64,000 nt of DNA from Nitrososphaerales archaeon. Lineage in GTDB: Archaea; Thermoproteota; Nitrososphaeria; Nitrososphaerales; UBA213. The stretch is from the NCBI GenBank assembly GCA_046759465.1, contig JBHICH010000003.1, forward strand, positions 2,504 through 66,503, written 5' to 3'. Each line of letters opens with the position of its first letter. Position 1 is the stretch's first letter. This document shows, in pieces, positions 4,066-41,960 of the stretch. The position numbers and the translations under genes are program-made. The notes beneath the pieces are model-generated. The model was not told where the DNA came from, ran no database searches, and worked only from the letters and a program-made list of their open reading frames with translations.

Positions 4066-4082
4066 TTTGTATCACTAGTGAG

Positions 4083-7839: not shown

Positions 7840-8025
7840 TGCTGAAATTACACTAACGCTATATATAACCATATACAAGAAAATATCTAATACTGTTTCT
7901 CTCCCTTCCATTTTGAAAATGCAAGAATATCTTTTGTTTAAAACTAGGGGATACCTGTGAAGATGCATCCCTTGTGTGAGAGGCGAAAAATTGAGTATAT
8001 ATACCAATTATAATTTGCATTATGC

Positions 8026-10260: not shown

Positions 10261-10272
10261 CTCACCTTATTT

Positions 10273-13349: not shown

Positions 13350-13395
13350 GACAATCAAATAGTTGCCAGCAAATGCATAATAATGTTAGGGTTTA

Positions 13396-14618: not shown

Positions 14619-14740
14619 TTACAAGTTAGTTATGCGAATTGTCATTTGAATAGTTTTACACTGCTAGTCAAATATCAAACAAGCTTTGAAGAACCGAGAT
14701 AATTAAAAAGATATAAACAGTGTGCAAGGATGTAAGCAGA

Positions 14741-15655: not shown

Positions 15656-15658
15656 CTT

Positions 15659-18770: not shown

Positions 18771-18866
18771 AGCGGTCAATGATTGTAGGCATATAATAAA
18801 TTTAATTGTAGGCATTTGAGTGAAAGCAAAAAAAGCATTATATCAAGCACAGATTACATTTTATGT

Positions 18867-26174: not shown

Positions 26175-27701
26175 TTGAAAATGATAAACAGGATTCTCAT
26201 CGCAAATAGGGGAGAGATTGCAATAAGGCTAATTAGGGCATGCAGAGAGTTAAGTATCAAAAGTGTTGCAGTTTATTCCGATGAAGACGCACAGGCAATG
26301 CATGTTAGACTTGCAGACGAAGCTTACCATATTGGTCCGCCAAGTCCAGCTGAAAGTTATCTTAAGATAAACAAGATAATTGAAACAGCAGAGAACGTAG
26401 GTGCAGATGCAATACACCCAGGTTATGGATTTCTGGCAGAAAATGCAGAATTTGCTGGTGCATGTGAAAATGCTGGAATAATATTCATCGGTCCAACAAG
26501 TAAAACACTAAGACTTACTGGGGACAAGATGCAGTGCAAAGGTGTTATGAAGAAAGCTAGTGTACCCGTTGTGCCTGGAAGTGATGATACACTTGAGGAA
26601 GTGGAGAAGGCGCTTGACATTGCAGAAGATGTTGGCTGGCCTGTTTTGCTGAAGTCGGCTTATGGTGGTGGAGGCAGGGGTATAAGGGTTGCAAATAATG
26701 AGAAACAGCTTAGGCAAGAATTTGAAATGGTATTGACGGAAGCCAAAAATGCCTTCGGTCGTTCCGCACTTTACGTTGAAAAATTTATGCCAAGAGTAAG
26801 GCACATCGAATTTCAGTTAGTTAGAGATTCATATGGAAATGCCTTGCATTTATTCGAGAGAGAGTGCTCGATTCAAAGAAGGCATCAGAAATTAATTGAA
26901 ATCTCACCATCTCCGGTTGTTAACAATGAAACTAGAAATAAAATTGGTAGCATTGGTGTTAAAGCTGTCAATGCTGCAAACTACCTTAATGCTGGCACGG
27001 TTGAATTTTTGTGCGACGAGAAGGGAAAATTCTACTTTATGGAAATTAACTCTAGGTTGCAAGTTGAACATCCAGTAACTGAACTGATTACTGGAATAGA
27101 TCTCGTAAAGTTGCAGATAAACATCGCTTCTGGAAAAGATATATCTTTCAAGCAAAATGATCTAAAACTAAGCGGATGTGCAATTGAGTGCAGAATCAAT
27201 GCCGAGGATCCGTTGAATGACTTCGCGCCTTCATCTGGTCCAGTTCCACGTTGCAGTATACCATATGGTCCTGGAATAAGAGTTGACACTTATCTTTACC
27301 CGGGCTGTACGGTATCTGGATATTACGATTCACTTGTTGCCAAGTTAATTGCATGGGGCAGGGACTTCGACGAAGCAAGGAGAAGGATGAAGAATGCACT
27401 GGACGAATTCTACATTGAAGGAATAAGCACTACAATACCATTGTATAAAACAATAATGAATGATCCAATATTCATTCGAGGAGATCTCTCAACAGATTAT
27501 CTTGAAAGGTTCAAGATATTTGAAAAGGTCGAGTCCACGGCAAAGGCAAGCGCGAAGGATAATGTTGATGCCATAGTTGCAGCTGCCCTGCTTCACTCCA
27601 CTCTGATAAGAATGGGGAACTCATCGGAACAAAACACAAATAAGCAATCAGGATGGAAGGAAGCAGGAAGATTCGTAAGGAGCTACAGCTATGGAATTTA
27701 A
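26175..27701 (+). CDS. accC: Biotin carboxylase subunit
   Basis: ILIANRGEIAIR, the ATP-grasp loop GGGGRGIR and EMNSRLQVEHPVTE. Confidence 0.95.
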   Translation: MKMINRILIANRGEIAIRLIRACRELSIKSVAVYSDEDAQAMHVRLADEAYHIGPPSPAESYLKINKIIETAENVGADAIHPGYGFLAENAEFAGACENAGIIFIGPTSKTLRLTGDKMQCKGVMKKASVPVVPGSDDTLEEVEKALDIAEDVGWPVLLKSAYGGGGRGIRVANNEKQLRQEFEMVLTEAKNAFGRSALYVEKFMPRVRHIEFQLVRDSYGNALHLFERECSIQRRHQKLIEISPSPVVNNETRNKIGSIGVKAVNAANYLNAGTVEFLCDEKGKFYFMEINSRLQVEHPVTELITGIDLVKLQINIASGKDISFKQNDLKLSGCAIECRINAEDPLNDFAPSSGPVPRCSIPYGPGIRVDTYLYPGCTVSGYYDSLVAKLIAWGRDFDEARRRMKNALDEFYIEGISTTIPLYKTIMNDPIFIRGDLSTDYLERFKIFEKVESTAKASAKDNVDAIVAAALLHSTLIRMGNSSEQNTNKQSGWKEAGRFVRSYSYGI

Positions 27702-28203
27702 TATTGAAGACCTAGCAATTACTCTCAATGCAGAGATATTAAAGAGAGTCAGCGGTGACGAAATGGTCATCAAGATTGGCGATAAAGAGCACAAGATACA
27801 TATTCTCTGCAGCAACAGCAACGAGGTTCAGTTCATGCTTGATAATTCTTATCACTATGCAAAGTATGTGCAAGTTAACAGCACTGACATGAAGTTAATA
27901 GTCGATGGGTATCCGGTTACTGTAAGCAAGTTTGCCGAGTTGCGCTCGATAGCACAAAAATCATCTGGAGCACAGTCATCAAGTGCAGCTCAGAGATTTC
28001 TTACAAGTTCGATTCCTGGCAGGGTAGTTTCTGTTGTTGCAAAACTAAATGATGAGATAAAGAAGGGAGATATCGTGGTTGTTCTTGAATCAATGAAGAT
28101 GCAAGTGGCAATTAAAGCACACAAGGATGGCACAGTTAAGGAGCTCAAGGTTAAGGAAGGCTTAGGCATCTCAAGAAATGATGTTGTTGCTGTGATTGAA
28201 TAA
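27691..28203 (+). CDS. accB: Biotin carboxyl carrier protein
   Basis: C-terminal biotinyl domain with LESMKMQ. It overlaps accC by 11 nt. Confidence 0.85.
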   Translation: MEFNIEDLAITLNAEILKRVSGDEMVIKIGDKEHKIHILCSNSNEVQFMLDNSYHYAKYVQVNSTDMKLIVDGYPVTVSKFAELRSIAQKSSGAQSSSAAQRFLTSSIPGRVVSVVAKLNDEIKKGDIVVVLESMKMQVAIKAHKDGTVKELKVKEGLGISRNDVVAVIE

Positions 28204-28208
28204 AAAGT

Positions 28209-28760
28209 TTAGATGTCTCTTAATACCTGCTTGATCTCTTCGTAGTTTGGCTCTATCAGCGGATTTTCAGATACCCACTTGTATTTTACATTGCCATTTG
28301 GGTCTATAACGAATACTGATCGCTTTGCCGCGTTGTACTGCTTTACGTGTAACAGATCTGGCATTACCACACCATACTTTCTTACAGCTTCTCTTGCATA
28401 GTCACTTAACACTGGAAAGTTCAGAGCATGCATCTCTACAAACTGCTTATTTGCAAAAGGCCCATCAACGCTTACAGCGACTACCTGCGCATCCACTTGA
28501 CTTATCTCATCCAAGGAGTCCCTGAATGAACACATCTCTCTAGTGCATACTGGGGACATTGCAGCAGGAAAGAATGCAAGTACAACTTTCTTACCCTTGA
28601 AATCCTGCAAACTCCTCATATTCAATGTGGGATCTGGGAGCACAAAGTCTGGCGCTTTACTGCCAACTTCTGGTGCCTTCATCTGTGGTTTTGGTTTTGG
28701 CCTTGCAGCTCGTTTCCTCTTTTTCTTCGCTTTTACCTTGGAAGCTCTTTTTTTGGCCAT
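28209..28760 (-). CDS. bcp: Peroxiredoxin (Bcp-type) with a polybasic N-terminal extension
   Basis: FFPAAMSPVCTREMC (CxxxxC Bcp motif). The N-terminal 26 aa are Lys/Arg/Pro-rich. An alternative ATG lies at 28682. Confidence 0.88.
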   Translation of the reverse strand: MAKKRASKVKAKKKRKRAARPKPKPQMKAPEVGSKAPDFVLPDPTLNMRSLQDFKGKKVVLAFFPAAMSPVCTREMCSFRDSLDEISQVDAQVVAVSVDGPFANKQFVEMHALNFPVLSDYAREAVRKYGVVMPDLLHVKQYNAAKRSVFVIDPNGNVKYKWVSENPLIEPNYEEIKQVLRDI

Positions 28761-28841
28761 AACTTGAAATGTGCTAAGAGATTATAAAAGAGTTTCTGGA
28801 TTTATCGAAAATGCTATTAACTTTTGCACTAAAGCACTGAT

Positions 28842-29372
28842 ATGGTTAAAGTAAACAAATTTTCCGTTGAATTGATTAAAGGTGACATAACTGAACTTCA
28901 TACTGATGCAATTGTTAACGCTGCAAATTCAAAATTGCGGCATGGAGCAGGTGTTGCATGGGCAATTATAAACAAAGGCGGATACGTAATTCAGAAAGAG
29001 TCAGATAAACTGCATTTCTGTCTAGTTGGTAATGCTGTTATAACTACTGCTGGAAAGCTCAAAGCGAAATATGTTATACATGCGGTTGGTCCTGTCAGGG
29101 GTGAAGGCAATGAGGATGCCAAACTGAAGAGTGCAACCTTAAGTGCACTGAAACTTGCAGATAAATACAAACTCAGGAGCATCGCTTTTCCGGCCATTTC
29201 AACTGGGGCCTTTAGATTTCCAAAAGATAGATGCGCAAATGTGATGTTAAATGCCGTAGCAGACTATGCTGAGGAGACTACTGGTCTAGAGAAGGTCATC
29301 TTCTGCCTTTATGATGATGAAACCTTCGAAGTCTTTAAAGATGTCCTACAGCAGGTAACTAAAACTCACTGA
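28842..29372 (+). CDS. Macro-domain protein (ADP-ribose binding/hydrolase)
   Basis: GDITELHTDAIVNAANSKLRHGAGVA and FPAISTGAFRFP motifs. Confidence 0.88.
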   Translation: MVKVNKFSVELIKGDITELHTDAIVNAANSKLRHGAGVAWAIINKGGYVIQKESDKLHFCLVGNAVITTAGKLKAKYVIHAVGPVRGEGNEDAKLKSATLSALKLADKYKLRSIAFPAISTGAFRFPKDRCANVMLNAVADYAEETTGLEKVIFCLYDDETFEVFKDVLQQVTKTH

Positions 29373-30532
29373 TTCAGGGCATACTTAAATTTGTAGGGAG
29401 AAACTTCTCTCAACGTACTCACAACGTTACCCAGAGTTCTAACTGTCTGGTCAATCTCACCAGAAGTATTCTGAATCCCAAGTGTTAATCTCAACGAGCC
29501 GGTTATCTCTTCATGATTGAACCCCATTGCTTTGAGCACATAGGATGCTTTCTGCTTTTGAACCGAACATGCAGAGCCTGTTGAGGCAGCAATTCCATTT
29601 TCATCAAGTTTTATGATCAGATCCTCGCCGTTAACTCCTAAGAATGTAAAGTGTACGTTGTTAGGCAATCTTTTTGTTGGATGACCGTTTAGTTTTGAAT
29701 GTGTTATATTTTTTAACAAATCGCTAATCAATCTGTCACTTAAATTTCTGACGTTGTTAGAATAATAATCGATATTCTGCAAAGCAACTTCTGCAGCTTT
29801 GCCCATGCCAACTATTCCTGCAACATTCTGTGTTCCTGACCTCATTTCCTTCTCCTGTCCTCCTCCATGGAGTATTGGTTCCATTTTTAGGCCATTGTTT
29901 ATGTATAAAGCACCTACACCCTTTGGCCCATACATTTTATGAGCAGATAGTGTTATCATATCTACTCCAAGTTTTTTAACATCAACTGGAATCTTTCCAA
30001 CAGCTTGAACCGCATCTGTATGGAATATCACTTGATGTTTGTGAACAATATTTACAATTTCCTTTACAGGCTGTATTGTTCCAACTTCGTTGTTTGCAAA
30101 CATTACGCTAACTAGAATTGTCTTTTCATTTATTGAACGCTCTAAAGCATCTAGATCAACCATGCCGTATCTGTCTACCGGAAGATAGTTTACATCGAAT
30201 CCAGCACCTTGAAGTTCCTTGCATGACTCCAGAACGGCTTCATGTTCTATGCTACTTGTGATTATTTGATTGCCCTTACTTCTCATTGCATAAGCAAAAC
30301 CTTTCAATGCAAGATTATTTGCTTCTGTTGCTCCCGAAGTAAATATAATCTCACCTTGAGAATTTATCAGTTTAGAAATTCTTTTCCTTGCAAGTTCAAT
30401 AGCATTAGCTGCCTGTCTTCCAAGTTTGTGAATAGACGACGGATTCCCATAGTACTCCTTCAAGTAGGGAAGTATTTCATTCAATACATCATCGGATAAC
30501 GGTGTGGAGGCTGCATTGTCTAAATAGATCAT
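29366..30532 (-). CDS. nifS: Cysteine desulfurase (NifS/IscS class)
   Basis: MIYLDNAASTP N-terminus, PLP-lysine context SAHKMYGPKG and active-site Cys STGSACS. Confidence 0.92.
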   Translation of the reverse strand: MIYLDNAASTPLSDDVLNEILPYLKEYYGNPSSIHKLGRQAANAIELARKRISKLINSQGEIIFTSGATEANNLALKGFAYAMRSKGNQIITSSIEHEAVLESCKELQGAGFDVNYLPVDRYGMVDLDALERSINEKTILVSVMFANNEVGTIQPVKEIVNIVHKHQVIFHTDAVQAVGKIPVDVKKLGVDMITLSAHKMYGPKGVGALYINNGLKMEPILHGGGQEKEMRSGTQNVAGIVGMGKAAEVALQNIDYYSNNVRNLSDRLISDLLKNITHSKLNGHPTKRLPNNVHFTFLGVNGEDLIIKLDENGIAASTGSACSVQKQKASYVLKAMGFNHEEITGSLRLTLGIQNTSGEIDQTVRTLGNVVSTLREVSPYKFKYALNQ

Positions 30533-31339
30533 TTAAACTACATTCAAACTACCAGTTTTATAACCGCTTGCTTCTATCGCAACAAACTTGAAACCTAATT
30601 TCTTTAATTCAACATCCAGCTGATCCAACTTTTCCTGATCAAACAACAATTTGCGCTCATTCATTCCAACCTCTATCCTTGCAATCTCACCATGATCTCT
30701 TACTCTGACCTGCTTAACGCCAAAGAGTTTCTTTACTACAATTTCTGCTTGCTCTATCTTCTTCAGTTTGTCAGCTGTGACTTGCGTGCCGTGTGGAATC
30801 CTTGATGCCAAACAGGCATTAGAGGGTTTATCGAATATAGATAAGTTTACCGAATTGGCTATCTGCCTAACTTCTTCCTTTGTTATAGAAAGTTCAACAA
30901 GTGGGCTCTTAACTCCATGTTGGCTTAGCGCTTTTATTCCAGGACGAAAATCAGTCAAGTCATCAGCATTTGTTCCATCTACAACCAACTTCGCTCTTTC
31001 TTTTTTGGCAACATCAATCAGATGCTTTCCCAATTCGTCTCTGCAGTAAAAGCATCTAAACTCGTCATTCTTGACGAAGTCCTCATTATCCAATTCACTG
31101 TATTCAATTATTTTATGCCTTATTCCGATCTCTTCCGCTACCTTTCTAGCACTCTGGAGCTCCTCATCTGAGAACGTTTTGTAGTCTGCAGTAACTGCAA
31201 TCGCATTACCATTTAATGCCTTTTTTGCTGCATATGCAACCACTGCACTATCAACCCCACCAGACAGTGCTACAATAACCTTACCTTTATCAACGAACCA
31301 GTACACCAGTTCATCAAACTTTCTGTCCACTTGCATCAT
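30533..31339 (-). CDS. larE: LarE-type ATP-dependent sulfur transferase (PP-loop), three-Cys variant
   Basis: PP-loop ALSGGVDSAV. Cys residues occur in RCFYCRDE (CxxC) and SNACLASRIP. The gene abuts nifS with no spacer. Confidence 0.85.
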   Translation of the reverse strand: MMQVDRKFDELVYWFVDKGKVIVALSGGVDSAVVAYAAKKALNGNAIAVTADYKTFSDEELQSARKVAEEIGIRHKIIEYSELDNEDFVKNDEFRCFYCRDELGKHLIDVAKKERAKLVVDGTNADDLTDFRPGIKALSQHGVKSPLVELSITKEEVRQIANSVNLSIFDKPSNACLASRIPHGTQVTADKLKKIEQAEIVVKKLFGVKQVRVRDHGEIARIEVGMNERKLLFDQEKLDQLDVELKKLGFKFVAIEASGYKTGSLNVV

Positions 31340-32580
31340 TTTTTTAACACCGAGAGTTTCTCCAGTATTGCTTGATTTATCATTGACGATGCTATTCTAT
31401 AAGGAATGTTAAGCTTTGCAGCAACATTCTTTACATCATCGTACTCAGGCTTTGCATACAGAATTTTATCCTGTTCTTTAACAACCTTAACTCTAATAAC
31501 AAACTCTTCTCCCCGGATGCTCACTGGAACTGAAAGCACGACCCTAGGCACAACATATCTTGAAGTTTCCTGCACTCTAACGCCAAGAGTTCCAGATTCC
31601 TGTATCAATGTATTTAGAACCGTGTTTAACTGTTCATAACCACATATTACCCTGATTATGTGTGCTGGCCTACTCTTCTTACTTATTACCGGAATCACGC
31701 TGACATCCTTAGCACCTGTTTCCATCAAGTTATCAATCAAACTGCCAATTACTTCTCCACTTGCATCATCAACATTTGTTTCAAGCAAGTGAACTGTATC
31801 CATCTCCAACTTTTGCACCTCCTTGCCAAGAACCAACTTTAACACATTCGGAAAGTTTTCAAAGTTCTTACTTCCAGCACCATAGCCAACCTTGATTGGT
31901 TGTAGCGTAGGGTAAAAATCCAATGAGCCTTTTGCCAGATTAACTAGCATAGATGCCCCAGTTGGAGTTGTAAGCTCGCTGTCAGCGGGTCCTCCCATGA
32001 GTGTAAAGTTCCTGTTCTTGAATATCTCAAGTATAGCACTCCCAGGGTTTGTGGTAGTGCCATGCGAGAATGTAAGCGAGCTACCTCCAACCGCAACTCT
32101 GCTGGAATAGATGTCAGCACTAAACAATCCAAGGTCCTGTATTGCAACTGCTGAACCCACTATATCGACCAACGTATCTATACTAGAAGCTTCATGCAGA
32201 TGCACCATGCTGTACGCTTCCCCATGAACCTTTGACTCTGCTTCTATAAGCACCTTTATGCTCGCAAGTGCAAAGGACTTTGTTTTGTTTTCTAAATCAA
32301 GTGAATCGCAGCACCTTGCTATGGCGTCGTAAACTTCCACACCTTTGCGTTCGTGACCTTTGTCATCGTACTTAATGTTGAGCACAGTTGCCCGAAAACC
32401 TGATCTCTTAACTTCTTCAAAAGACGCATTGATTATCCTGCTTCCTTCAAGAAACTTTTGGCAGGACATGATAGCATCGATGACCTTCATCCTGTTTGCA
32501 CCAAGATCGACCAATGAAGATAGTAACATATCGCCAGATATTCCAGCGATCTGGCAATCAAACACCGCTAACATGCACAA
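31336..32580 (-). CDS. larC: LarC nickel-insertion protein (DUF111)
   Basis: N-terminal AGISGDMLLSSLVDLG and the DUF111 length (414 aa). It overlaps larE by 4 nt. Confidence 0.85.
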   Translation of the reverse strand: MCMLAVFDCQIAGISGDMLLSSLVDLGANRMKVIDAIMSCQKFLEGSRIINASFEEVKRSGFRATVLNIKYDDKGHERKGVEVYDAIARCCDSLDLENKTKSFALASIKVLIEAESKVHGEAYSMVHLHEASSIDTLVDIVGSAVAIQDLGLFSADIYSSRVAVGGSSLTFSHGTTTNPGSAILEIFKNRNFTLMGGPADSELTTPTGASMLVNLAKGSLDFYPTLQPIKVGYGAGSKNFENFPNVLKLVLGKEVQKLEMDTVHLLETNVDDASGEVIGSLIDNLMETGAKDVSVIPVISKKSRPAHIIRVICGYEQLNTVLNTLIQESGTLGVRVQETSRYVVPRVVLSVPVSIRGEEFVIRVKVVKEQDKILYAKPEYDDVKNVAAKLNIPYRIASSMINQAILEKLSVLKK

Positions 32581-32664
32581 AGTGTAATTGTCGTTATTAA
32601 TATAAATTTATTTTACAGTTGTACATTAAATCAACATTGTAATTTAATGAAAACCTATAAGTAA

Positions 32665-33597
32665 TTGCACTATCTACGGCATTGCGTGATAACTATTATT
32701 GGCTCTGGCAAAGTTGGTAGCTCGATAGCGTTGCAGATCGCATTAAAAGAGTTGGATGATATCTTATTGCTTGACATAATTCAAGGATTACCCCAAGGAG
32801 AAGCTATGGATATAACTCATCTTCTTTCTGAGCGTGGAATCGATGTTAATGTGAGGGGTTCCAATGATTACTCTGAAATGCAAGGTTCAGATATCGTTGT
32901 TTTAGTTGCGGGAGTTGGCAGAAAGCCTGGAATGACTAGAATGGATCTTTTGAACCAAAACGCGTCAATAGTAAATGATGTTGCAGGAAAGATAGCTCAA
33001 CATGCAAAGGATTGCAAGGTAATCACGGTTACCAATCCACTCGACCCCATGACATATCTAACATTAAAGGTAACAAAGTTAAAGCCTAACAAGGTGTGCG
33101 GAATGGGAAACATGCTCGATGTGTCCAGGTTCAAGAGTTCAATTGCGGATGCTCTAAAAGTCTCTAGAGGAACGATAAAGGCTTTGGTTATTGGTGAGCA
33201 TGGCGAGAATATGTTGCCATTGATAAGATACTCATCTGTATCAGGAGAATCGTTAACAAAATTTCTCTCAAACGAGAAGGCAAAAGAGTTAGTTGAAAAC
33301 ACAAGAAAGGTAGCGATAGAAGTTATTACTCTTAAGGGTGCAACGATCTATGCTCCAGCAAATGGTGTAACTAGAATTGTTGAATCGATGGTTAAAGACA
33401 AGAAAGAGGTTTTGCCTGTTGCCGCTTATCTAAATGGAGAATATGGTCTTAGAGATATCTGTATTGGGGTTCCAGCAGTTATAGGCAGTGATGGTGTTGA
33501 GCGTATAATAGAACTTGAACTTAATAGCGAAGAAAAGGAATGGTTTTCGAAAGGGGTCGAAAGTATAAAGAACGCAGTAGGCAGCTTGACACTTTAG
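32665..33597 (+). CDS. mdh: Malate (L-2-hydroxyacid) dehydrogenase, LDH-like family
   Basis: [10 protein letters not shown] Rossmann motif, [19 protein letters not shown] and the catalytic IGEHG. The start could instead be GTG 32686. Confidence 0.85.
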
Positions 33598-33726
33598 TTT
33601 GAAACCACAAATACTTTTATATCGTTTCTCTCGTGGGGATATTCAAGCGATGATTGCTCAGATCGCAGACTCCTGCCTGCGGTTTTTGTCCGAGTTAGAT
33701 CATTCAGCTAGCGGTAGTGTATCAAT

Positions 33727-34599
33727 ATGAGAAACACAATAAATGTAGCTGTGATGGTGAAGCTAGAGCCAGATCTTTCGGAAGGTAATGTTAGTTATAA
33801 TCGCGATGGTACGCTCAACAGATCACAAACAAAGAGCATCCTTGGAGCGCATAGTGCGATTGCCTCTAGAGCTGCATTTTACTCTAAGGTTCTGTATGAT
33901 GCCAACATCAAAGTGTGTTCGATGGGTCCTCCTATAGCTGAAGTTGCATTGAAACAATCAATGGAAATATGCGGTGCAGATGAATTACATTTGTACAGTG
34001 ACAGGCTCTTCGCAGGTGCAGATACGCTTTCGACTGCCGAAGTTCTTAAGAATGGCATTCAGAAGATGGATTCAATTGATCTTGTAATAAGCGGGCACAG
34101 AGCAGTTGATGGTGAGACTGGTCAAACAGGTCCACAAACTGCATGGAAGTTAGGTTTTAATTTTTTGGGCAATGTGATCGGCTATAGCATCGATATAGCT
34201 GCCAAAACACTACATGCTAGACGACTTATTGAACTGCAGGGACTTTACAACGTTCTTGAAGAAGTGGATTGCTCGTTACCAGCTGTTATTTCGGTCGATC
34301 CTAGTTACAAAGAATCATACACTGTAGTCTCGCAGAGGTTAAAGTATGTCAGATTGCTAAAAGAAGCAGCAAAGAGAGTACAGAATTACAAGCATTATAT
34401 CAAGGTCTGGAATTCGGAAGACTTGGGAGCAGATGCCAAGTATGTTGGTTTGCCAGGTTCTCCAACGATCGTATACAAGGTTGAAAGAATCCCGAAGGCG
34501 AAGGCTAGCAGAAAGGCGCAGATCATAGGTGCCAGCGATATAAACGCAATAGCAAGTCTAGGAAAGAAACTGGTTGAGCTTGCAAATAGAAGGGGATAG
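33727..34599 (+). CDS. etfB: Electron transfer flavoprotein beta subunit (FixA-like)
   Basis: EtfB pattern ADTLSTAEVL ... DLVISGHRAVDGETGQTGPQTAWKLG. Confidence 0.88.
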   Translation: MRNTINVAVMVKLEPDLSEGNVSYNRDGTLNRSQTKSILGAHSAIASRAAFYSKVLYDANIKVCSMGPPIAEVALKQSMEICGADELHLYSDRLFAGADTLSTAEVLKNGIQKMDSIDLVISGHRAVDGETGQTGPQTAWKLGFNFLGNVIGYSIDIAAKTLHARRLIELQGLYNVLEEVDCSLPAVISVDPSYKESYTVVSQRLKYVRLLKEAAKRVQNYKHYIKVWNSEDLGADAKYVGLPGSPTIVYKVERIPKAKASRKAQIIGASDINAIASLGKKLVELANRRG

Positions 34600-34602
34600 A
34601 CT

Positions 34603-35778
34603 ATGCGAGAGAAGTATCAGCATCTAGTGGTTTGTTTCGAGCATGATGATGGAGAACCCTTGAATATAAGTTTTGAAATGCTCGGAGAGGCCAGAAGACT
34701 GATGGATGGTTACAACAAAAAATATTCTACAAATGAAAAGGTAATTGCAATCATTCTTGGCCATAATATCAAGCCTCTTTGTAATGAGGCAATATATCAT
34801 GGCGCAGATGCTATTATCTTCTCAGATCATCAAGAATTAAGATATCCCAAGATAATGGTTGATACAAAAATAATAAGTTCTATCGTTAAGGATAGAAAAA
34901 TAATTTCTGCAGCAGTTCCCAGTACGTCGGAAGATTACATCAAACCAAGATACATGTTCTTCGGCGCAGATGCTATTGGAAGACATCTTTCTTCTACAGT
35001 ATTAGCCGAACTTGAATCCGGGCTTGCCTCCGATGTTAACAAGTTGGCGGTTGATGATGTTACTATAACACATATGCATAAAACAAAAGGTAAACCAGAG
35101 AGTTATGGCAAGATACTCTTCATGTACAGACCTGACTTCAGTGGATTTCTTTGGACTCAAATATTATGTCTGGACAACATGAATTCCGACATCCAGCGTG
35201 AATATTCTCCACAGGGTTGCAGTATAATTCCTGGAGTGTTTCAGCCACTGGCGAGAGATGAAAATAGAAAAGGTAGAATCGTAGGATATGAACCCAGTTT
35301 TGCTGCCAAAGATCTCAAGTTCGTTATAAAGAAAAGAGAAATAATCAAGAGCGAGGTACCACTTGAAGACAAGACTGCTGTTATAGCTTTTGGAAGAGGA
35401 ATAAAAGATAGTCCAGAAAGTAACATCAAACTCATTGAGCAGTTTGCAAAAGAGCTGAATGCTGAGGTTGCAATTTCGCTTCCTCTCTCTAAGCAACCGT
35501 ACAGTGTCAGCCAGTCAATAAACTCAACATATTTTATACCAGCAAGGGTAGTAGGCACGAGCGGCAAGAAGATAAAGCCCCAACTTTACGTAGCAATTGG
35601 TATAAGCGGTGCAGTGCAACATATAGTTGGAATGAAGGATTCCGATTTCGTTATTTCAATAAATCCTGATGAAAATGCTCCAATAAAGGATGAAAGTGAT
35701 GTATTCATACATGGTAGACTAGAGGATGTTTTACCCAATTTGATAACCTCGATCAAGAAGTTCAAGAGTGATAAGTAA
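34603..35778 (+). CDS. etfA: Electron transfer flavoprotein alpha subunit (FixB-like)
   Basis: C-terminal FAD domain PQLYVAIGISGAVQHIVGM...VISINPDENAPI. Confidence 0.88.
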   Translation: MREKYQHLVVCFEHDDGEPLNISFEMLGEARRLMDGYNKKYSTNEKVIAIILGHNIKPLCNEAIYHGADAIIFSDHQELRYPKIMVDTKIISSIVKDRKIISAAVPSTSEDYIKPRYMFFGADAIGRHLSSTVLAELESGLASDVNKLAVDDVTITHMHKTKGKPESYGKILFMYRPDFSGFLWTQILCLDNMNSDIQREYSPQGCSIIPGVFQPLARDENRKGRIVGYEPSFAAKDLKFVIKKREIIKSEVPLEDKTAVIAFGRGIKDSPESNIKLIEQFAKELNAEVAISLPLSKQPYSVSQSINSTYFIPARVVGTSGKKIKPQLYVAIGISGAVQHIVGMKDSDFVISINPDENAPIKDESDVFIHGRLEDVLPNLITSIKKFKSDK

Positions 35779-37670
35779 TGGAAAAGTATGATGTTGTGAT
35801 AATTGGTGGTGGATCTGCTGGTCTAGCTGCCTTAGTTGAGCTTTCAAAGCTTGGCTTGCAGGCAGTTGTCTTGGAGGCGGGAAAACCGGTTGGCTCTAAA
35901 AGCGTAACTGGAGGAATATTTTACTCGAAAAGATATCGTGATGCGAAGGTTTACAATGTTGAGGATGTTTATGGCGAGTCCTTTCTTTCCCAGGCACCAT
36001 TGGAAAGGAAGATAACGAAGTATTACTTGAATGCCGTATCTGGAAACAAGGCCTACACAGTAGATTTGACTGATGCACACAACTACCAGACAAACTTTGC
36101 TTATTCTGTACTGATGGTCAAGATGAACCGGTGGTTTGCAGAGCGAGCTGAAGAGGAAGCATCTGGGCTTGGCGGCGGTATCGTTTCTGGTGTCCATGTA
36201 AGCAATATAGCCTGGCAAAATGGCAAAACGATAGTTGAGACTGATGAGCTGGAGCCAATCGAAGTTAGAGCTGTAGTAGCTGCAGATGGCGTCAATTCAG
36301 AAACTGCGTTGATGACAGGTGCCAGGCAGAAGTTTGAGCCAGATACTCTCTACCACGGAGTCAAGTCTGTTGTAAGATTGCCTGAAGATATAATTGATGA
36401 AAGATACGATTTGAAAGACGGCGAAGGCATTGCTCACTTGTTTGCTGGCGACATTTCAAGAGGCCACAACGGCGGGGGTTTTCTTTACACAAATAAAGAC
36501 ACATTATCTGTTGGAGTTGTTTATCATCTAGACTCACTGATAAAAAGTCCAATTGAACCATACAACTTGCTTGACAGTTTCCTCAGCATCCCATTAATTA
36601 GAAATTACATCAGGGACGAAGTTCCATACGTAAAAGAGACCGATAGAGATCTTCCGAAAGAAGAGCAACTAAGAATAAAGTTTGGCATAAGCAAGTTGCT
36701 GAAATCGTGGGATGAACTAAGATACACCTACTATTCTAAAACTGCAAGAAAAAAGGCAATTGAGCAGGGGAACTATAAGGATGAAGATGAAATAAGAACC
36801 AAGTTGCAGGAAACAAGAAAGCAACTGGAAGAAAAGTTCGGTGTGTCTTTCGAAACCAATTATGTGGAATTGGAATATTCTGCAAAGCTTGTTCCAGATG
36901 GCAAGCGTGCGTTAATGGAGAAACCATACAAGAAGAATGTGCTATTTATTGGTGATGCTGCTGGCAGGGGTGTATTCGTTGGAACTAGAATCGAAGGCAT
37001 AAATATTGGCATAGACGATGCCGCAAGGTCTGCAAAGGCAGTTGCAAGAGCAAAGGAAAGGAATGCATTCTCAGAAGAGTATCTAGGTAGGTTTTATGGA
37101 GAATTGATAAAAGAAAGTCCTTACACCACTGATCTAAAGACAATCAATTTTGAATATCTGAAGATCTTTGTAAATGCATGCAGGGAGATACCACGGGAAT
37201 CTTTGAGTTTGTTTTTAAGATTGGGATTCACACTTCTATCAAAAGCTTCCGTTCAGGACTTTGCAAGGAGCATTACTAAGATGCTAGACCAACGAACGTT
37301 GCTGAATCTGATTGAAAGCAATGAAGCATATGTCAAGATTCCAATGGAAGTTGCACAAAAGATTGGCAGAAATGTTGAATCCGATTACGACGTCAAATTT
37401 CCTAGCGTAGAAGACAGAATTGCTAAGATAAAGATCAATGACTATCCTGAATCTCACATAAAGATAATAGATCCAAATGCAAAGTTCATTAAGAGCATGG
37501 TTCAGCTATGTCCCACACAATGCTACATAATGGAACTTATCGACAAGGAGAGATTCAAATCCCAAGTGGTCTTGCAACATGAAGGTTGCATTGAATGTGG
37601 GACATGCGCAAAACAGACAGAGTGGAAGCATCCTAAAGGAGAGAAAGGCGTAATTTACGAATACGGATGA
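35778..37670 (+). CDS. fixCX: Fused FixC-FixX: FAD-dependent ETF-quinone oxidoreductase with a C-terminal ferredoxin-like domain
   Basis: The N-terminus is YDVVIIGGGSAGLAA. The C-terminal ~70 aa read CPTQCY...EGCIECGTCA...W.HPKGEKGVIYEYG, the FixX pattern. The start overlaps the etfA stop (TAATG). Confidence 0.85.
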   Translation: MEKYDVVIIGGGSAGLAALVELSKLGLQAVVLEAGKPVGSKSVTGGIFYSKRYRDAKVYNVEDVYGESFLSQAPLERKITKYYLNAVSGNKAYTVDLTDAHNYQTNFAYSVLMVKMNRWFAERAEEEASGLGGGIVSGVHVSNIAWQNGKTIVETDELEPIEVRAVVAADGVNSETALMTGARQKFEPDTLYHGVKSVVRLPEDIIDERYDLKDGEGIAHLFAGDISRGHNGGGFLYTNKDTLSVGVVYHLDSLIKSPIEPYNLLDSFLSIPLIRNYIRDEVPYVKETDRDLPKEEQLRIKFGISKLLKSWDELRYTYYSKTARKKAIEQGNYKDEDEIRTKLQETRKQLEEKFGVSFETNYVELEYSAKLVPDGKRALMEKPYKKNVLFIGDAAGRGVFVGTRIEGINIGIDDAARSAKAVARAKERNAFSEEYLGRFYGELIKESPYTTDLKTINFEYLKIFVNACREIPRESLSLFLRLGFTLLSKASVQDFARSITKMLDQRTLLNLIESNEAYVKIPMEVAQKIGRNVESDYDVKFPSVEDRIAKIKINDYPESHIKIIDPNAKFIKSMVQLCPTQCYIMELIDKERFKSQVVLQHEGCIECGTCAKQTEWKHPKGEKGVIYEYG

Positions 37671-37749
37671 AGAAAAATATGAATCGAACCTAAGCATTAC
37701 TTGGCTTCTGACAATTAGGCTTTTATCCGATTGTCATATTATTGCTAGT

Positions 37750-38526
37750 GTGCAACTGAAGGAGATACTTGAAAAGCTGGCAAAGGGAAAGATCTCTGTT
37801 GAAGACGCACAGAGAATGCTATCACTGCATACTATAGAGTATGTTGAAGATCTTGCAAAGTTGGATATTGGCAGGGATATGCGAAAGGGAATGCCGGAGG
37901 TTGTTTATGGGGAAAATAAAACTTATTCAGTTTTAGCCAAGATTGCAGGTGCCGCATTGAAGAGAAAGAGTTCTGTAATAATCAGCAAGATAAATAACAA
38001 CCACATAAAACAGTTACAGAAATTCCTGAAGAAGAAAAAGGTAAAGGTGATCGTAAGTGACACAGCTAGAACTTTGGTAGCAGAAAAACACAAGACAAAT
38101 AGTACTGGAGGCAAAGTTGCAATAATAACCGCTGGCACTTCCGATATTGCTGTAGCAGAAGAAGCTAGGCTGATGGTAGAGGCAATGGGATGCAGGACAA
38201 TTACTAGTTATGATGTTGGTATTGCAGGGATGCATAGATTATTCCCAGTATTAAAAGATGTTATTAAAAATGACGTTGATGCGATAATCATAGTCGCTGG
38301 TATGGAAGGTGCGTTAGCATCTGTAGTTGCAACAATGGTTGATGTTCCAGTGATAGGGGTGCCAACTTCAGTAGGCTATGGTTTTGGATCAGACGGCGTT
38401 GCTGCTCTTGCATCTATGTTGCAGAGTTGCACCTTCGGACTTGCTGTGATGAACATTGATAATGGTATAGGTGCCGGTGCTCTAGCAGCTACGATAGCAA
38501 ACAGAGTCGCGAGATACAAAAAATAG
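37750..38526 (+). CDS. larB: LarB (pyridinium-3,5-biscarboxylic acid mononucleotide synthase, PurE-like)
   Basis: PEVVYGENKT, IITAGTSDIAVAEEA and VAGMEGALASVVA motifs. GTG start. Confidence 0.85.
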   Translation: MQLKEILEKLAKGKISVEDAQRMLSLHTIEYVEDLAKLDIGRDMRKGMPEVVYGENKTYSVLAKIAGAALKRKSSVIISKINNNHIKQLQKFLKKKKVKVIVSDTARTLVAEKHKTNSTGGKVAIITAGTSDIAVAEEARLMVEAMGCRTITSYDVGIAGMHRLFPVLKDVIKNDVDAIIIVAGMEGALASVVATMVDVPVIGVPTSVGYGFGSDGVAALASMLQSCTFGLAVMNIDNGIGAGALAATIANRVARYKK

Positions 38527-39246
38527 TTACTTTATTGATTCAGCTATTCTCACTAAATCTTCTAATGGCATATTTGCTTCAATATTGTACAGCATCTTGT
38601 TTACTACTACAAATATTCTGGCAGGAAATGGAAATAAACCCACTGAAGCGTCACTGATACCAGTCGCAGACAATCCACCGCTAGGATCGTAGCCTATTGC
38701 TGGATTCCCGTTTATTGTTAGTTGATGCACACTGTACTTTGGAACTATTTTGTTGATGGCATCAATCATCTGTGCTTGCGAGTCAGGTACACGTAATGAC
38801 TCTGCTATGCGAACCACAACGGCGCCGTTCAGAGCTGGCCCTCCTGAAAGTTCACTTGCATTGCACAATGGTCTGTCCCAGTAATACATAGTTATCATTT
38901 CAACACTATTGTTACTCACTACATCTACTCCCTCCAAGGAATATCCGATGGGTAAAAAATGTGGTGTCATGATCTGAAACTTGATCTTTGAGCCTTCATC
39001 TAGTACAGGTGAAAAATTTGGCGAGCAAGTTAATGGTTCAACAGCTGGATACTTTTCTGCACCAGCTGGAACTGGCAGTACGTCCAGAGATGTATCGTGT
39101 ATAATGCTTGGACTTGGAATAGGCATCTGCACAATTATTGCAAAAGCTAGAAGTGATCCTATACCAACTATTGTATACAGGTACGGTTTGTGCTTAGTTT
39201 CTTCGTTCAATTCTATTAGCACAAGAATTTTACGTATTAATGTCAA
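38527..39246 (-). CDS. Hypothetical N-terminally anchored extracytoplasmic protein
   Basis: A single N-terminal TM segment (YLYTIVGIGSLLAFAIIV) followed by a ~190-aa soluble domain. No motif recognised. Confidence 0.5.
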   Translation of the reverse strand: MTLIRKILVLIELNEETKHKPYLYTIVGIGSLLAFAIIVQMPIPSPSIIHDTSLDVLPVPAGAEKYPAVEPLTCSPNFSPVLDEGSKIKFQIMTPHFLPIGYSLEGVDVVSNNSVEMITMYYWDRPLCNASELSGGPALNGAVVVRIAESLRVPDSQAQMIDAINKIVPKYSVHQLTINGNPAIGYDPSGGLSATGISDASVGLFPFPARIFVVVNKMLYNIEANMPLEDLVRIAESIK

Positions 39247-39479
39247 GCTGTAAAGAAATGTTGTCCTTCATTGAACGTATTGCAACACCAATTATTAGCG
39301 AACCTGAACATTGAGGAGCCTGGCGATAAAGAAGGTGCACCACATCCAATTGACAAAACCTCTTATAGCAAAAGCATAAAGCTACTTATGGGATCAATGG
39401 AATCTGCTGAAATTGAAAGAGAAAATAGATTGGATGCATTAAAGCGTCTAGCAAAATATTCTCAAACACTTTATCAGTA

Positions 39480-40217
39480 CTATCCGCTTATCACGGCGCT
39501 TCCAATTATGCCTAGATCCACCAATTCTGCACCGATACCGTATCCCACCAATGCTATACCAGTGCCCAATCCTGCCATCTCTATTCCTCCTCTTACCCAA
39601 CTCTTCTTTGCCATCCTAGACTTTAGGGCACCAACGACGAAAGATGATGTCACGCTAACAACAATTGCTATTAGCAGCGCAGTTAATCCCGCGATGAAGA
39701 AGAACGGTATAATAGGTAATATTCCTCCCAACAAGAACGAACCAAACATTATAAATGCGCTCTTTAAAGGCTTCCCAGCAATTTCTAGATTCAATCCTAA
39801 TTCTTCCGTCAACATTGTTTTCAACCAAACATCTTTGTTCGCCGTTATTTTATCAACAATCATGCGCAACTCGTCTCCCTCAAACCCTTTTGCTTTGTAG
39901 ATATCCTCGATCTCCTTGCGTTCCAAATGCGGCAGGTGCTCGATTTCATAAAGTTCCCTCTTGATCTCTGATTCCAAAACTTCTCTCTGTGACTTTACTG
40001 CCAAGTAGTTCTGCACCGCCATTGCCTTTGCCCCTGTAAACATTCCTACTAATGCAGCAAGGATCACTATACCTGCAGACACCTCTGCCGCTCCTACCCC
40101 AGCCACGATTCCAAGCGATGTGTTTACGCCATCACCAAAACCAAAAACAACATCGCGGATGTAGCTGCTCTGGCTTATGTGCGGTTCACTGTGTCTAGGC
40201 TCAACGTCTATCGGCAC
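39480..40217 (-). CDS. VIT1/CCC1-family iron/manganese transporter
   Basis: FGDGVNTSLGIVAGV, a central ferritin-like helical region (ELYEIEHLPHLERKEIEDIY) and C-terminal TM helices. Confidence 0.85.
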   Translation of the reverse strand: MPIDVEPRHSEPHISQSSYIRDVVFGFGDGVNTSLGIVAGVGAAEVSAGIVILAALVGMFTGAKAMAVQNYLAVKSQREVLESEIKRELYEIEHLPHLERKEIEDIYKAKGFEGDELRMIVDKITANKDVWLKTMLTEELGLNLEIAGKPLKSAFIMFGSFLLGGILPIIPFFFIAGLTALLIAIVVSVTSSFVVGALKSRMAKKSWVRGGIEMAGLGTGIALVGYGIGAELVDLGIIGSAVISG

Positions 40218-40409
40218 AGCTAAAATTGTTAATTATTCAATATAAATATAGCAAATATTAGGAGTTACTAATTGGGCGTTGCAACTCTTTCCTGATATCT
40301 TGAACAAAGATAGGTAGCATTTTCGTTATTTCTCGACCATCTATTACATTTATTATAAATCCAATAGGATGAAAAAGAGTTTTATAGTAAATATAACTAA
40401 TGGGAGGAC

Positions 40410-41960
40410 ATGCCTGGAAAACGTATTGTTCTAACGGCCGACCGCAGCTTAATGACAAATTACAGGGGCAACTTCCTGTATGGTTTCATTGCCTGTGGTC
40501 CTTACGAGTTGATACCAGAGTGGGTCTACGACACTGTTTTTTGTCCCAGCGTTGAAACCGATCAAATTACTGGGGAAGCTAAAGTTGCTCAATGCGGTTT
40601 AAGACGCATCGAAAGTGCTTTATTAAAAGAGTACAAGCGTGAAGATGTCTTTGTATGTCATCCAGAGATGGTCGATAAGGCGATTGGTGAAGACACTAAG
40701 GTTGTTGGTGTGAATGTGATGGACCCATTGGGGATGGCTCCAGTTACAACCACTATGTCACCTGAAAAGCTTTCTTACGTTGCGATGAAGTTCAAGAGGA
40801 TGTGTGCTAGGATTATTCAATTAAAGAAGCAGTACAAGTTCAAGGTTCTTGTTGGAGGTAACGGTGCTTGGGAGTTGGCAAAACCCGACAGAATGAGGAT
40901 ACATGGCATAGACACTGTTGTTGTTGGAGAAGCAGACGAATTGGCATTAGATATTTTCAAGGACGCAGAAAATGGTGGCACTCCAGAACTGTTGCACACG
41001 TTTGTTAGAACTATAGAAAATGTTCCTGAGATAACTGGTCCAACAGTTAACTCCTTAGTAGAGGCAATGCGTGGGTGTGGAAGGGGCTGTGACTTTTGTG
41101 ATGTCAACAAGAGATCAAAGAAGGATTTCCCAGTGGAACGTTTGCAGAGGGAAGCCAGGATTAATCTTGGCTACGGTTTCGACTCCATATGGTTACAGTC
41201 AGATGAGATGCTGCTCTACGGATGCACAAGCAGGGACTTTATCCCGAACAAGGATGCAATAACAGAACTATGGAGGGGCCTGAAGTCTACGGGTGCAAGA
41301 TTTGTTGGAACAACGCATATGACACTTTCAGCCGTAATGGCTGCTCCAGATTTGCTTGAAGAAATTTCAGAAATTAATCAGATGAGCAATTCCAGGTGGC
41401 TAGCAACCAATCTTGGCATTGAAACGGTTTCTCCAAAGCTGGTAAAAAAGCACTTGGGTATAAAGATGAAACCGTTCCAGCCAGACGAATGGGGGACAGT
41501 TGTAAGGCAAGGCTGCAAGATCCTTAACAAAAACCACTGGTTCCCAGCATTGACATTGATAGTTGGCTGGCCAGACGAAACTCCAGAAGATACGCAATAC
41601 ACGATTGATCTTGTGGAAGATTTGATGTCATGGAAGATGAAGGGGTTGATTGCACCACTGCTCTATCAGGACTACAGCGAAAAGAATTCAATGCACTTTG
41701 GTAACTTGAACGAGGCTCAGTTCACCCTGTTCTGGAGATGCTGGCAACACAATCTAAAGATCATCAATGATATAATTCCAATAATTGTTAGAAACAAATC
41801 ATACGGTCCACTGATGAAGGTCTTCATGGCGATGCTAGTAAAAGCTGGCACATGGGCAATATTCAAGTACCTTAGGGGAATATGCAAGGAACTCTTTGCA
41901 CAAACACCAGACGATATAGTCGAAAGGTACGCGAGAAAGTCTATTACAGTTTCAGTCTAA
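40410..41960 (+). CDS. Radical SAM protein with an N-terminal B12-binding-like domain
   Basis: CGRGCDFC (CxxxCxxC) at about residue 230, preceded by a Rossmann-like region (KVLVGGNGAW). Confidence 0.85.
   Translation: MPGKRIVLTADRSLMTNYRGNFLYGFIACGPYELIPEWVYDTVFCPSVETDQITGEAKVAQCGLRRIESALLKEYKREDVFVCHPEMVDKAIGEDTKVVGVNVMDPLGMAPVTTTMSPEKLSYVAMKFKRMCARIIQLKKQYKFKVLVGGNGAWELAKPDRMRIHGIDTVVVGEADELALDIFKDAENGGTPELLHTFVRTIENVPEITGPTVNSLVEAMRGCGRGCDFCDVNKRSKKDFPVERLQREARINLGYGFDSIWLQSDEMLLYGCTSRDFIPNKDAITELWRGLKSTGARFVGTTHMTLSAVMAAPDLLEEISEINQMSNSRWLATNLGIETVSPKLVKKHLGIKMKPFQPDEWGTVVRQGCKILNKNHWFPALTLIVGWPDETPEDTQYTIDLVEDLMSWKMKGLIAPLLYQDYSEKNSMHFGNLNEAQFTLFWRCWQHNLKIINDIIPIIVRNKSYGPLMKVFMAMLVKAGTWAIFKYLRGICKELFAQTPDDIVERYARKSITVSV

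Follow-up and report, generated by a model that had tools for sequence, protein, structure and literature searches.

The nickel-pincer cofactor genes of ammonia-oxidizing archaea form a conserved cluster with a malate dehydrogenase gene, ancestrally including etfBA-fixCX

The 64,000-nt stretch of a Nitrososphaerales archaeon contig (JBHICH010000003.1) that was analyzed here, and to which we refer as the window, contains a cluster of eight genes in which the genes that make the cofactor known as nickel-pincer nucleotide (NPN) enclose a malate dehydrogenase gene, mdh, and an etfB-etfA-fixCX module. The order of these eight genes is ancestral to the ammonia-oxidizing archaea (AOA), the partner that has stayed with the lar genes in nearly all of the sampled AOA is mdh, and no LarA-type client of the cofactor is encoded in the window. 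Family assignments were made with Pfam and NCBIfam scans, whose scores are given as bits versus the curated cutoff.

On the minus strand lie larC (31336..32580), encoding a nickel-inserting cyclometallase with LarC1 and LarC2 domains (PF01969, 362 bits); larE (30533..31339), encoding a sulfur insertase that depends on ATP and belongs to the [4Fe-4S] (CxxC...C) class (TIGR00268, 286 vs 150); and nifS (29366..30532), the last gene of the larC-larE-nifS operon, encoding a class-V aminotransferase family member, a cysteine desulfurase of the nifS/iscS type that uses pyridoxal phosphate (PF00266, 309 bits). On the plus strand, mdh (32665..33597), encoding a malate dehydrogenase of the NAD type within the lactate dehydrogenase (LDH)-like family (PRK06223, 381 vs 283 bits), is followed by etfB (33727..34599; fixA-like small subunit, PF01012), etfA (34603..35778; fixB-like large subunit, PF00766 and PF01012), fixCX (35778..37670), which encodes a flavoprotein resembling electron transfer flavoprotein (ETF):quinone oxidoreductase fused to a C-terminal FixX-like ferredoxin domain, and larB (37750..38526), encoding the nicotinic acid adenine dinucleotide carboxylase/hydrolase that makes the biscarboxylated pyridinium mononucleotide P2CMN (NF033503, 249 vs 175 bits). 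All eight open reading frames (ORFs) lie at the coordinates and on the strands that the initial annotation had given, and the scans bear out the family identity that it had proposed for every gene of the cluster.

According to the ORF map, the genes within each unit are tightly packed: larC and larE overlap by 4 nt, larE and nifS are separated by 0 nt and etfB and etfA by 3 nt, and etfA and fixCX overlap by 1 nt. The larger gaps are those between mdh and etfB (129 nt) and between fixCX and larB (79 nt). The two units diverge from an A/T-rich promoter region of 84 bp (32581..32664). The lengths of 84 and 79 bp given in the initial annotation are exact for the mechanically defined ORFs, but the starts of homologous proteins widen the divergent spacer. 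Thus, larC likely starts at its third codon, at 32574, as NCBI holds a 100% identical protein of 412 aa under the name LarC, encoded by the metagenome-assembled genome (MAG) of a 'Nitrososphaerales archaeon', and mdh likely starts at the GTG at 32686, as its orthologues begin MTITVIGSGKVG. With these later starts, the spacer (32575-32685) measures ~111 bp instead of 84 bp. The corresponding spacers of AOA loci share a TATA-like box on the mdh side, TAATTAAA, and a separate one on the larC side, AATTTATAT, and no common palindrome or shared operator stood out when the sampled AOA spacers were inspected. Another TATA-like element, ACTTTTATATCG, is located just past the mdh stop codon in the gap 33598-33726, ~100 nt upstream of etfB, and a weaker one, CTTTTATCC, is present in the gap 37671-37749, ~30 nt upstream of the larB start. 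It is therefore possible that etfB and larB have promoters of their own.

The lar genes make up a complete set for NPN biosynthesis, as the initial annotation had supposed; LarB, LarE and both LarC domains (the nickel-binding LarC1, TIGR00299, 143 vs 90; the CTP-binding LarC2, NF052512, 117 vs 50) exceed the curated equivalog cutoffs of NCBI. LarB, which has the AIR-carboxylase fold, aligns over its full length with LarB of Lactiplantibacillus plantarum (PDB 7MJ0, E = 7.6e-49), and keeps the cysteine of the 'SC' motif as well as the motifs TAGTSD and AGMEGALASVV; we take this cysteine to be Cys221 of the L. plantarum enzyme. A His-rich block of LarC (H117, H125, H127 and H171) is invariant in an alignment of 13 AOA LarC sequences (A1). 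LarE contains an SGGVDS PP-loop and a CFYC motif that aligns with the CxxC of PDB 8CNZ, and its third cysteine aligns with Cys176 of L. plantarum LarE (5UDQ), which itself lacks a CxxC. These three motifs are retained in every one of the 82 AOA LarE orthologues (82/82). It has been reported that the CxxC...C motif characterizes the [4Fe-4S]-dependent, non-sacrificial class of LarE enzymes, which are recharged by the persulfide of a cysteine desulfurase (PMC9283937). By these motifs, the LarE enzymes studied here are of the catalytic [4Fe-4S] type, and because this type requires a desulfurase, the adjacent nifS has a clear role. NifS scores 511 bits against TIGR03402, just below the cutoff of 531, and 349 vs 304 bits against the IscS subfamily PRK02948.

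The chemistry of the individual steps is deduced from characterized homologues. First, LarB would carboxylate and hydrolyze nicotinic acid adenine dinucleotide to P2CMN. Second, the NifS-type desulfurase would abstract sulfur from cysteine and deliver it in persulfide form to LarE, at its [4Fe-4S] cluster. Third, LarE would consume ATP in the catalytic insertion of two sulfurs, which yields P2TMN and costs the enzyme none of its cysteines. Fourth, LarC would add nickel in a CTP-dependent reaction. The proteome of Nitrososphaera viennensis contains LarB (NVIE_013930) and NVIE_013960 ('UPF0142'), whose identity as larC was assigned from gene order, both at ~1% of the level of Mdh; because these two proteins are detected, the NPN pathway appears to be expressed.

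Comparison with known lar systems shows both shared and distinct features. LarB, LarC and LarE are orthologous to the products of the L. plantarum larA-larBCE operon, and the conversion of nicotinic acid adenine dinucleotide to NPN presumably proceeds alike. However, the L. plantarum operon includes larA and encodes a sacrificial LarE with a single cysteine, whereas the window lacks larA, its LarE is of the [4Fe-4S] type, its larC-larE operon includes a cysteine desulfurase gene, and its lar genes are distributed over two divergent units around mdh and etf-fix. Another parallel is provided by the [4Fe-4S] LarE of Thermotoga maritima with IscS as sulfur donor (PMC9283937) and by the homologue in PDB 8CNZ, which share the CxxC...C motif and the PP-loop, so that dependence on a desulfurase is expected here as well. 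In T. maritima the desulfurase genes are located far from larE (PMC9283937), whereas nifS directly follows larE in 60 of the 71 AOA loci with enough sequence.

Mdh is, judged from its sequence, a canonical NAD-type malate dehydrogenase of the LDH-like family, which would interconvert malate and oxaloacetate with NAD(H). Its top PDB matches are malate dehydrogenases (best 4PLH, E = 6.5e-88), with 298 bits against canonical NAD-dependent structures, and its Pfam matches, Ldh_1_N and Ldh_1_C, place it in the Rossmann family of NAD enzymes. For a closer comparison, 62 AOA sequences were aligned with a diverse outgroup of 129 sequences, which a HMMER search of the full library had supplied. The GxGxxG motif, the ribose-binding aspartate and the equivalents of R102 (malate specificity), R109, D168, R171 and H195 do not vary in either set; in the window protein, numbered from the GTG at 32686, these hallmarks are G6, G8, G11, D30, R79, R85, D145, R148 and H172. 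The invariants specific to AOA are K9 in the glycine loop (GSGKVG), a Thr-to-Val change in 'TAG', a Pro-to-Gly change before R102, M86, P121, N175 and N226. Among the 62 AOA sequences, as compared with the 129 outgroup sequences, there is no AOA-specific invariant His or Cys that could serve as a new nickel ligand, and K9 is the only new invariant Lys. Features like those of NphT, namely loss of the AMP pocket and/or a lineage-specific His with or without a Lys at the cofactor site, were not found in Mdh, as the adenosine-ribose Asp is kept. The protein has been treated as the Mdh of the tricarboxylic acid (TCA) cycle in AOA, and in N. viennensis it ranks with the most abundant proteins. AOA appear to have it as their main Mdh. 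The reservation made in the initial annotation, that it may simply be the TCA-cycle enzyme, stands.

The module encoded downstream of mdh contains all four components of FixABCX/EtfABCX complexes, i.e., EtfA, EtfB, FixC and a FixX-like domain. The best PDB matches of EtfB are the bifurcating CarD (6FAH_B) and a subunit of T. maritima EtfABCX (7KOE_A), and its motif GHRAVDGETGQTG resembles what we take to be the FAD-binding DGDT motif of bifurcating EtfB. EtfA matches bifurcating EtfA proteins over its full length (7KOE_B, E = 3.7e-36, followed by CarE, Bcd-Etf and LctC), whereas non-bifurcating ETFs are matched at the C-terminus only. FixC is a divergent member of its family, scoring 186 bits against PRK10157 and 173 bits against PRK10015, which is below the cutoffs (186 vs 610), and its sole PDB match is the FixC of T. 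maritima EtfABCX (7KOE_C, E = 4.7e-35). The C-terminal 110 aa of FixCX match FixX weakly (PRK15449, E = 5e-6) and show the pattern CPxxC...CxxCxxC. Hence, the module resembles the bifurcating EtfABCX of Thermotoga in sequence, with the differences that FixC and FixX are fused, that FixC carries an insertion of ~85 aa, and that the genes lie between mdh and larB; bifurcation is a prediction here. If it functions as a FixABCX/EtfABCX-type complex, to which kind the FixABCX of Azotobacter also belongs, EtfBA-FixCX would, by homology to 7KOE, oxidize NADH and reduce quinone and ferredoxin.

The conservation of the cluster was studied with a LarC-anchored scan, in which alignment A1 was searched against one genome per GTDB species. 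This yielded 593 LarC-encoding stretches, the best 80 of which are all of the AOA type and are labeled Nitrososphaera, Nitrosotalea, Nitrosotenuis, Nitrosarchaeum, Nitrosopumilus, Nitrosopelagicus or Nitrosopumilaceae. Their flanks were annotated by tblastn with the window proteins. In 51 of the 64 loci with enough sequence upstream of larC to be informative, mdh is divergent from larC and directly adjoins it. In 9 more, all with Nitrososphaera-type flanks, one gene lies in between, so that mdh accompanies larC in 60/64 loci, including those of Nitrosopumilaceae, Nitrosotalea, Nitrosotenuis, Nitrosarchaeum, Nitrosopelagicus and Nitrososphaera. Likewise, in 46 of 49 AOA loci the gene that immediately follows mdh is larB, at a median gap of ~40 nt as measured between alignment ends, and where etf-fix is present, larB lies downstream of fixCX instead. 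In the crown groups (Nitrosopumilales and most Nitrososphaera) no etf or fix gene separates mdh from larB: etfBA-fixCX was found at this site in none of the sampled Nitrosopumilaceae and Nitrosotalea loci, and it lies elsewhere in Nitrososphaera genomes. A fixABCX cluster has been described from soil Thaumarchaeota and reported to be absent from marine ones (PMC3379541).

The gene inserted between mdh and larC in Nitrososphaera encodes a membrane-anchored, His-rich protein of ~190 aa (L030, 9390-9959; L011, 5133-5705) without Pfam or NCBIfam match. By position, its counterpart in N. viennensis is NVIE_013950 ('hypothetical protein'), whose abundance is similar to that of Mdh and ~50-100 times that of LarB or LarC. 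This protein could be metal-binding. A different arrangement is found in Ca. Nitrososphaera evergladensis, where mdh is absent next to larC: locus L004 encodes a CbtA-family putative cobalt/nickel transporter subunit (7980-8941) together with a small partner gene.

A MAG of Ca. Nitrosocaldus, an early-branching AOA lineage, contains all eight genes in the order of the window, at 54-66% identity and with both flanks different (L085). The same order is found in the close relative L005. Further cases came from a second, FixCX-anchored scan, which covered metagenome contigs. In these, the full cluster is present in the lineage of the window itself (L089; L090 up to fixCX, where the contig ends; L087 and L088 on partial contigs) and in two further lineages (L097 and L151; FixCX identity 62-65%). 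Thus, the eight-gene order recurs in close relatives as well as in deep lineages, in line with the initial annotation, which had made its reading depend on synteny in related genomes. Another 68 loci, at a FixCX identity of 52-57%, which is the level of Nitrososphaera comparisons, contain etfB-etfA-fixCX alone. In the group L091-L094, an aconitase gene is followed by etfB-etfA-fixCX-larB without mdh, and the group shares a downstream FeS-assembly/PqqD gene with the Nitrosocaldus locus; L092 and L096 show fixCX-larB only. In L091 (4772-12723), aconitase directly precedes etfB-etfA-fixCX-larB, and neither mdh nor larC-larE-nifS is nearby. Thus, larB keeps its terminal position behind the upstream genes that remain.

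The divergence of the Etf and Fix proteins is about that of the Lar proteins and Mdh, and the simplest history is therefore that of an ancestral eight-gene cluster transmitted by vertical descent. A recent insertion of etf-fix into a pre-existing mdh-larB pair was also considered, and was rejected, since the Nitrosocaldus locus and the FixCX-anchored scan show that the eight-gene order is ancestral to AOA, which also establishes the age of the cluster. In the simplest history, etfBA-fixCX was lost from the site in marine lineages and relocated in Nitrososphaera. The module is hence an ancestral but dispensable passenger, and the conserved partner of the lar genes is mdh. Because lar and mdh are conserved without etf-fix, a route that feeds the quinone pool, as considered in the initial annotation, cannot be the reason why the lar genes are conserved.

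We also searched for the user of the cofactor. The window contains no recognizable LarA: there was no Pfam match to DUF2088/Lar_N among 47 window ORFs (all those of at least 150 aa except four), and tblastn searches of the window with L. plantarum LarA and Geobacter LarAH11 (best E = 0.5) and with the thaumarchaeal LarAH12 sequences Ngar_c34640 and CENSYa_1687 (best E = 0.2) gave no significant match. Moreover, phmmer searches with all four LarA-type queries against every stop-free window stretch of at least 100 aa returned nothing at E <= 10. No hidden, divergent LarA thus emerged in the window, and the statement in the initial annotation that no LarA homologue is visible in the 64 kb is confirmed by these three kinds of search. 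Neither did the same four queries find a match in 166 AOA lar/fix loci (2.12 Mb in total), and the Pfam scans of the window ORFs revealed no gene for an NphT-like aldo-keto reductase (AKR) or an ornithine cyclodeaminase (OCD).

From the literature, canonical LarA has been reported in AOA only from sediment clades, for which larB and larC were also listed (PMC8397731). LarAH12 is known from N. gargensis and Cenarchaeum (PMC7583248, supplement). In the published alignment it carries E, D, T and A instead of H108, H174, K184 and H200, and the one LarAH12 tested was inactive, the protein having been refolded (PMC7583248). In our analyses LarAH12 had no Pfam match; it matched LarA by phmmer at the C-terminus only (E = 0.02) and by hhalign with a probability of 22% over LarA residues 206-328 only, so that the published residue table could not be re-derived. 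Among the best 120 of 400 LarAH12 matches, those with a taxon label belong to Nitrososphaera or Thermoproteota. It is therefore doubtful that LarAH12 is a client of NPN. The alternative raised in the initial annotation, that the cofactor is used by an as yet unrecognized enzyme, is still the most suitable interpretation. There is precedent for users other than LarA encoded next to larBCE, as the AKR NphT (with NPN) and an OCD (with NPAD, bound non-covalently) were described in 2025-2026 (PMC13524815). The AOA clusters share with these bacterial clusters the presence of larB, larC and larE without LarA, and an adjoining gene annotated as an NAD-dependent oxidoreductase. They differ from them in that the neighbor belongs to the LDH/MDH family, with a full NAD site and no His/Lys nickel-pincer motif. 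Furthermore, the studies on NphT and OCD mined bacteria, whereas the present cluster is archaeal and conserved clade-wide.

Taking these results together, we lean, with modest confidence, towards the following interpretation. The lar-mdh-fix cluster is ancestral to AOA and encodes a complete and apparently expressed NPN pathway; the user of the cofactor would be an enzyme other than canonical LarA, encoded elsewhere in the genome; and mdh would be linked to the lar genes through shared context or regulation. As to why mdh was kept, the NPN enzyme would act at the same malate/2-hydroxyacid/NAD node as Mdh and be co-regulated with it, an explanation for and against which we hold the balance to be about even. 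Several observations weigh against our interpretation. Firstly, the functional tie between an NPN enzyme and mdh is suggested by gene order, and in N. viennensis Mdh is ~100 times more abundant than the adjacent LarB. Secondly, the linkage has exceptions: in 4 of the 64 informative loci, all from Nitrososphaeraceae and including that of Ca. N. evergladensis, mdh and larB are not found next to larC, and in two relatives of the window lineage larB is split from fixCX (in one of them it lies next to purK/purE). Thirdly, the TATA-like boxes before etfB, and possibly larB, indicate that the plus-strand genes may not form one transcript. Fourthly, synteny inertia in AOA is real, as unrelated flanks (AhpC-ACC, where ACC denotes acetyl/propionyl-CoA carboxylase, and VIT1-rSAM, where rSAM denotes radical SAM) also stay adjacent across orders: the ACC-AhpC-nifS adjacency is found in Nitrososphaera and L151, and not in Nitrosocaldus L085 or Nitrosopumilales, and the rSAM-VIT1-larB adjacency in Nitrosopumilales, and not in Nitrososphaera or Nitrosocaldus. 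Finally, within this genome our search for LarA covered the window.

Traces of genomic rearrangement were observed in a relative of the window lineage with a 2.63-Mb assembly (L002). There, a DDE transposase gene (3522-4575) occupies the position where larB follows fixCX in the window, and on the other side, past nifS and a macro-domain gene, lie a Cas1 fragment and a HEPN/AbiV gene. These genes mark the site as a recent rearrangement hotspot.

The inertia just described raises the question of whether the lar genes merely adjoin a housekeeping mdh, serving the TCA cycle or gluconeogenesis, and ancestrally fixABCX, the order being frozen and without functional or regulatory meaning. This is a real possibility, which we nevertheless judge the less probable one. 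It would fit with Mdh being a very abundant, canonical NAD-type enzyme that is treated as part of the TCA cycle, with the conservation of the unrelated AhpC-ACC and VIT1-rSAM flanks between orders, and with the separate core promoters of mdh and larC, which have no obvious shared operator. In addition, the departure of etf-fix left the lar genes unaffected, and some Nitrososphaeraceae separate mdh-larB from larC-larE. On the other hand, none of the four sampled lineage groups (Nitrosopumilales, Nitrososphaera, the lineage of the window and the Nitrosocaldus-like one) lacks the core, whereas each flank is present in at most two to three, and in Nitrosocaldus the eight genes are colinear even though both flanks differ. 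Moreover, after the removal of etf-fix, mdh and larB closed up to ~40 nt instead of drifting apart, and lar genes are located at both ends of the unit.

It can also be speculated that Mdh itself is the client, binding the nickel-pincer cofactor, most likely as NPAD, in its Rossmann site instead of or beside NAD, such that the cluster would be self-contained like larA-larBCE. Indeed, mdh is the only gene inside the cluster across AOA without an assigned role in making the cofactor. AOA-invariant residues that are rare in the 129 outgroup malate dehydrogenases, namely K9, the Val in 'TAG' and the Gly before R102, fall in motifs that, going by LDH/MDH structures, presumably lie near the cofactor. 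NphT with NPN and OCD with NPAD, encoded next to larBCE without LarA, provide the precedent (PMC13524815), and the substrate of Mdh is a 2-hydroxyacid, the class on which all LarA enzymes act, malate racemases being the largest LarA group (PMC11770544). Our literature search retrieved no biochemical characterization of AOA Mdh that would speak to this. However, all NAD-binding and catalytic hallmarks are kept, and D30, which contacts the adenosine ribose, argues against a mononucleotide cofactor. Mdh has no AOA-specific His or Cys as a fourth nickel ligand, unlike NphT and LarA with their His/Lys motif, and it scores as highly against canonical NAD-dependent structures as stated above. Furthermore, some Nitrososphaeraceae hold larC-larE without mdh nearby. 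We therefore consider it improbable that AOA Mdh is the client, and just as improbable its extended form, in which Mdh would be a nickel-pincer enzyme, probably with NPAD, that was ancestrally re-oxidized via EtfBA-FixCX.

A precedent for a hydroxyacid dehydrogenase gene next to etf genes is LctBCD of Acetobacterium woodii, which is accompanied by a lactate racemase and contains a related Etf (7QH2). It differs from the present system in that its dehydrogenase is of the FAD-dependent GlcD type, as is the flavin partner in Etf-coupled hydroxyacid dehydrogenases, whereas Mdh is an NAD Rossmann enzyme, and in that the present cluster lacks a racemase, its EtfA carries no ferredoxin domain, and the host is an aerobic archaeon. 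It is thus very unlikely that Mdh, EtfBA and FixCX form a complex of the Ldh/Etf kind that would oxidize a racemized 2-hydroxyacid and pass its electrons to quinone, with NPN serving the racemization: although the Etf is related to LctBC of Acetobacterium (7QH2; less closely than to EtfABCX) and mdh immediately precedes etfB in the ancestral order, the known Etf-coupled enzymes are flavoproteins, the searches of the window and of the 166 AOA lar/fix loci revealed no racemase gene, the 129-nt gap between mdh and etfB contains a TATA-like box, and Nitrosopumilaceae and Nitrosotalea keep mdh and lar without etf-fix at this site, in keeping with the reported absence of fixABCX from marine Thaumarchaeota, so that the lactate-oxidation analogy drawn in the initial annotation fails.

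The cluster is flanked on one side (24621..29372) by genes that match, by family, a macro-domain protein, a peroxiredoxin and, with three genes, an acetyl/propionyl-CoA carboxylase such as typically serves carbon fixation in AOA, and on the other side (38527..41960) by genes for a hypothetical protein (239 aa), a transporter of the VIT1 family and a radical-SAM protein (516 aa). The latter (40410-41960, plus strand) has weak family matches (TIGR04013, B12/radical-SAM, 55 bits) and is more conserved than the neighboring lar genes, its identity being 87-89% to the proteins of close relatives and 72-77% to those encoded in related loci and in Nitrosopumilales. Elsewhere in the window, whose GC content of ~41% would fit terrestrial 'Nitrosomirales', a ycaO gene adjoins tfuA on the minus strand (9583-11631); the best match of this YcaO is to the type that thioamidates a glycine of McrA (TIGR03266, 273 bits vs a cutoff of 365). 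YcaO and TfuA are a peptide-thioamidation pair, and the host, an apparent ammonia oxidizer, is not expected to have methyl-coenzyme M reductase. The region 12321-16369 looks like a run of genes for quinone biosynthesis or modification, encoding a flavoprotein similar to geranylgeranyl reductase, a protein similar to chorismate lyase, a UbiA prenyltransferase, a protein of the NAD-dependent epimerase/dehydratase family and a UbiE-type methyltransferase. In addition, genes for proline dehydrogenase (plus strand) and an aldehyde dehydrogenase of the pyrroline-5-carboxylate (P5C) type (minus strand) are convergent and overlap (18816-21310), an arrangement that points to a predicted capacity for proline catabolism in this lineage.

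Some elements of this picture were already known, namely lar clusters without LarA, fixABCX in soil Thaumarchaeota, and larB and larC in sediment AOA. In the literature searched we found neither the lar-mdh cluster as a feature of AOA at large, nor the ancestral form of eight genes that includes etf-fix, nor the fixed pairing of larE with nifS. This pairing provides genomic support for the mechanism in which a [4Fe-4S] LarE works with a cysteine desulfurase, for which the demonstration so far is an in vitro one that used a heterologous IscS. Should a full NPN pathway be maintained and expressed broadly in AOA without a recognizable LarA, these archaea probably contain an unrecognized nickel enzyme, possibly near central carbon metabolism. 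Such an enzyme would imply a demand for nickel beyond that of urease, which could bear on nitrification and on trace-metal limitation. Were Mdh the client after all, a nickel cofactor of organometallic nature would underlie the central carbon flow from malate to oxaloacetate in one of the most abundant groups of microbes, and LarA, AKR and OCD would be joined by the LDH/MDH superfamily as a fourth NPN scaffold. As N. viennensis and N. maritimus are in culture and have public proteomes, users of NPN other than LarA can be searched for there. The AOA cluster thereby opens the search for further users of the nickel-pincer cofactor to direct tests in archaea that are both cultured and dominant in their ecosystems.

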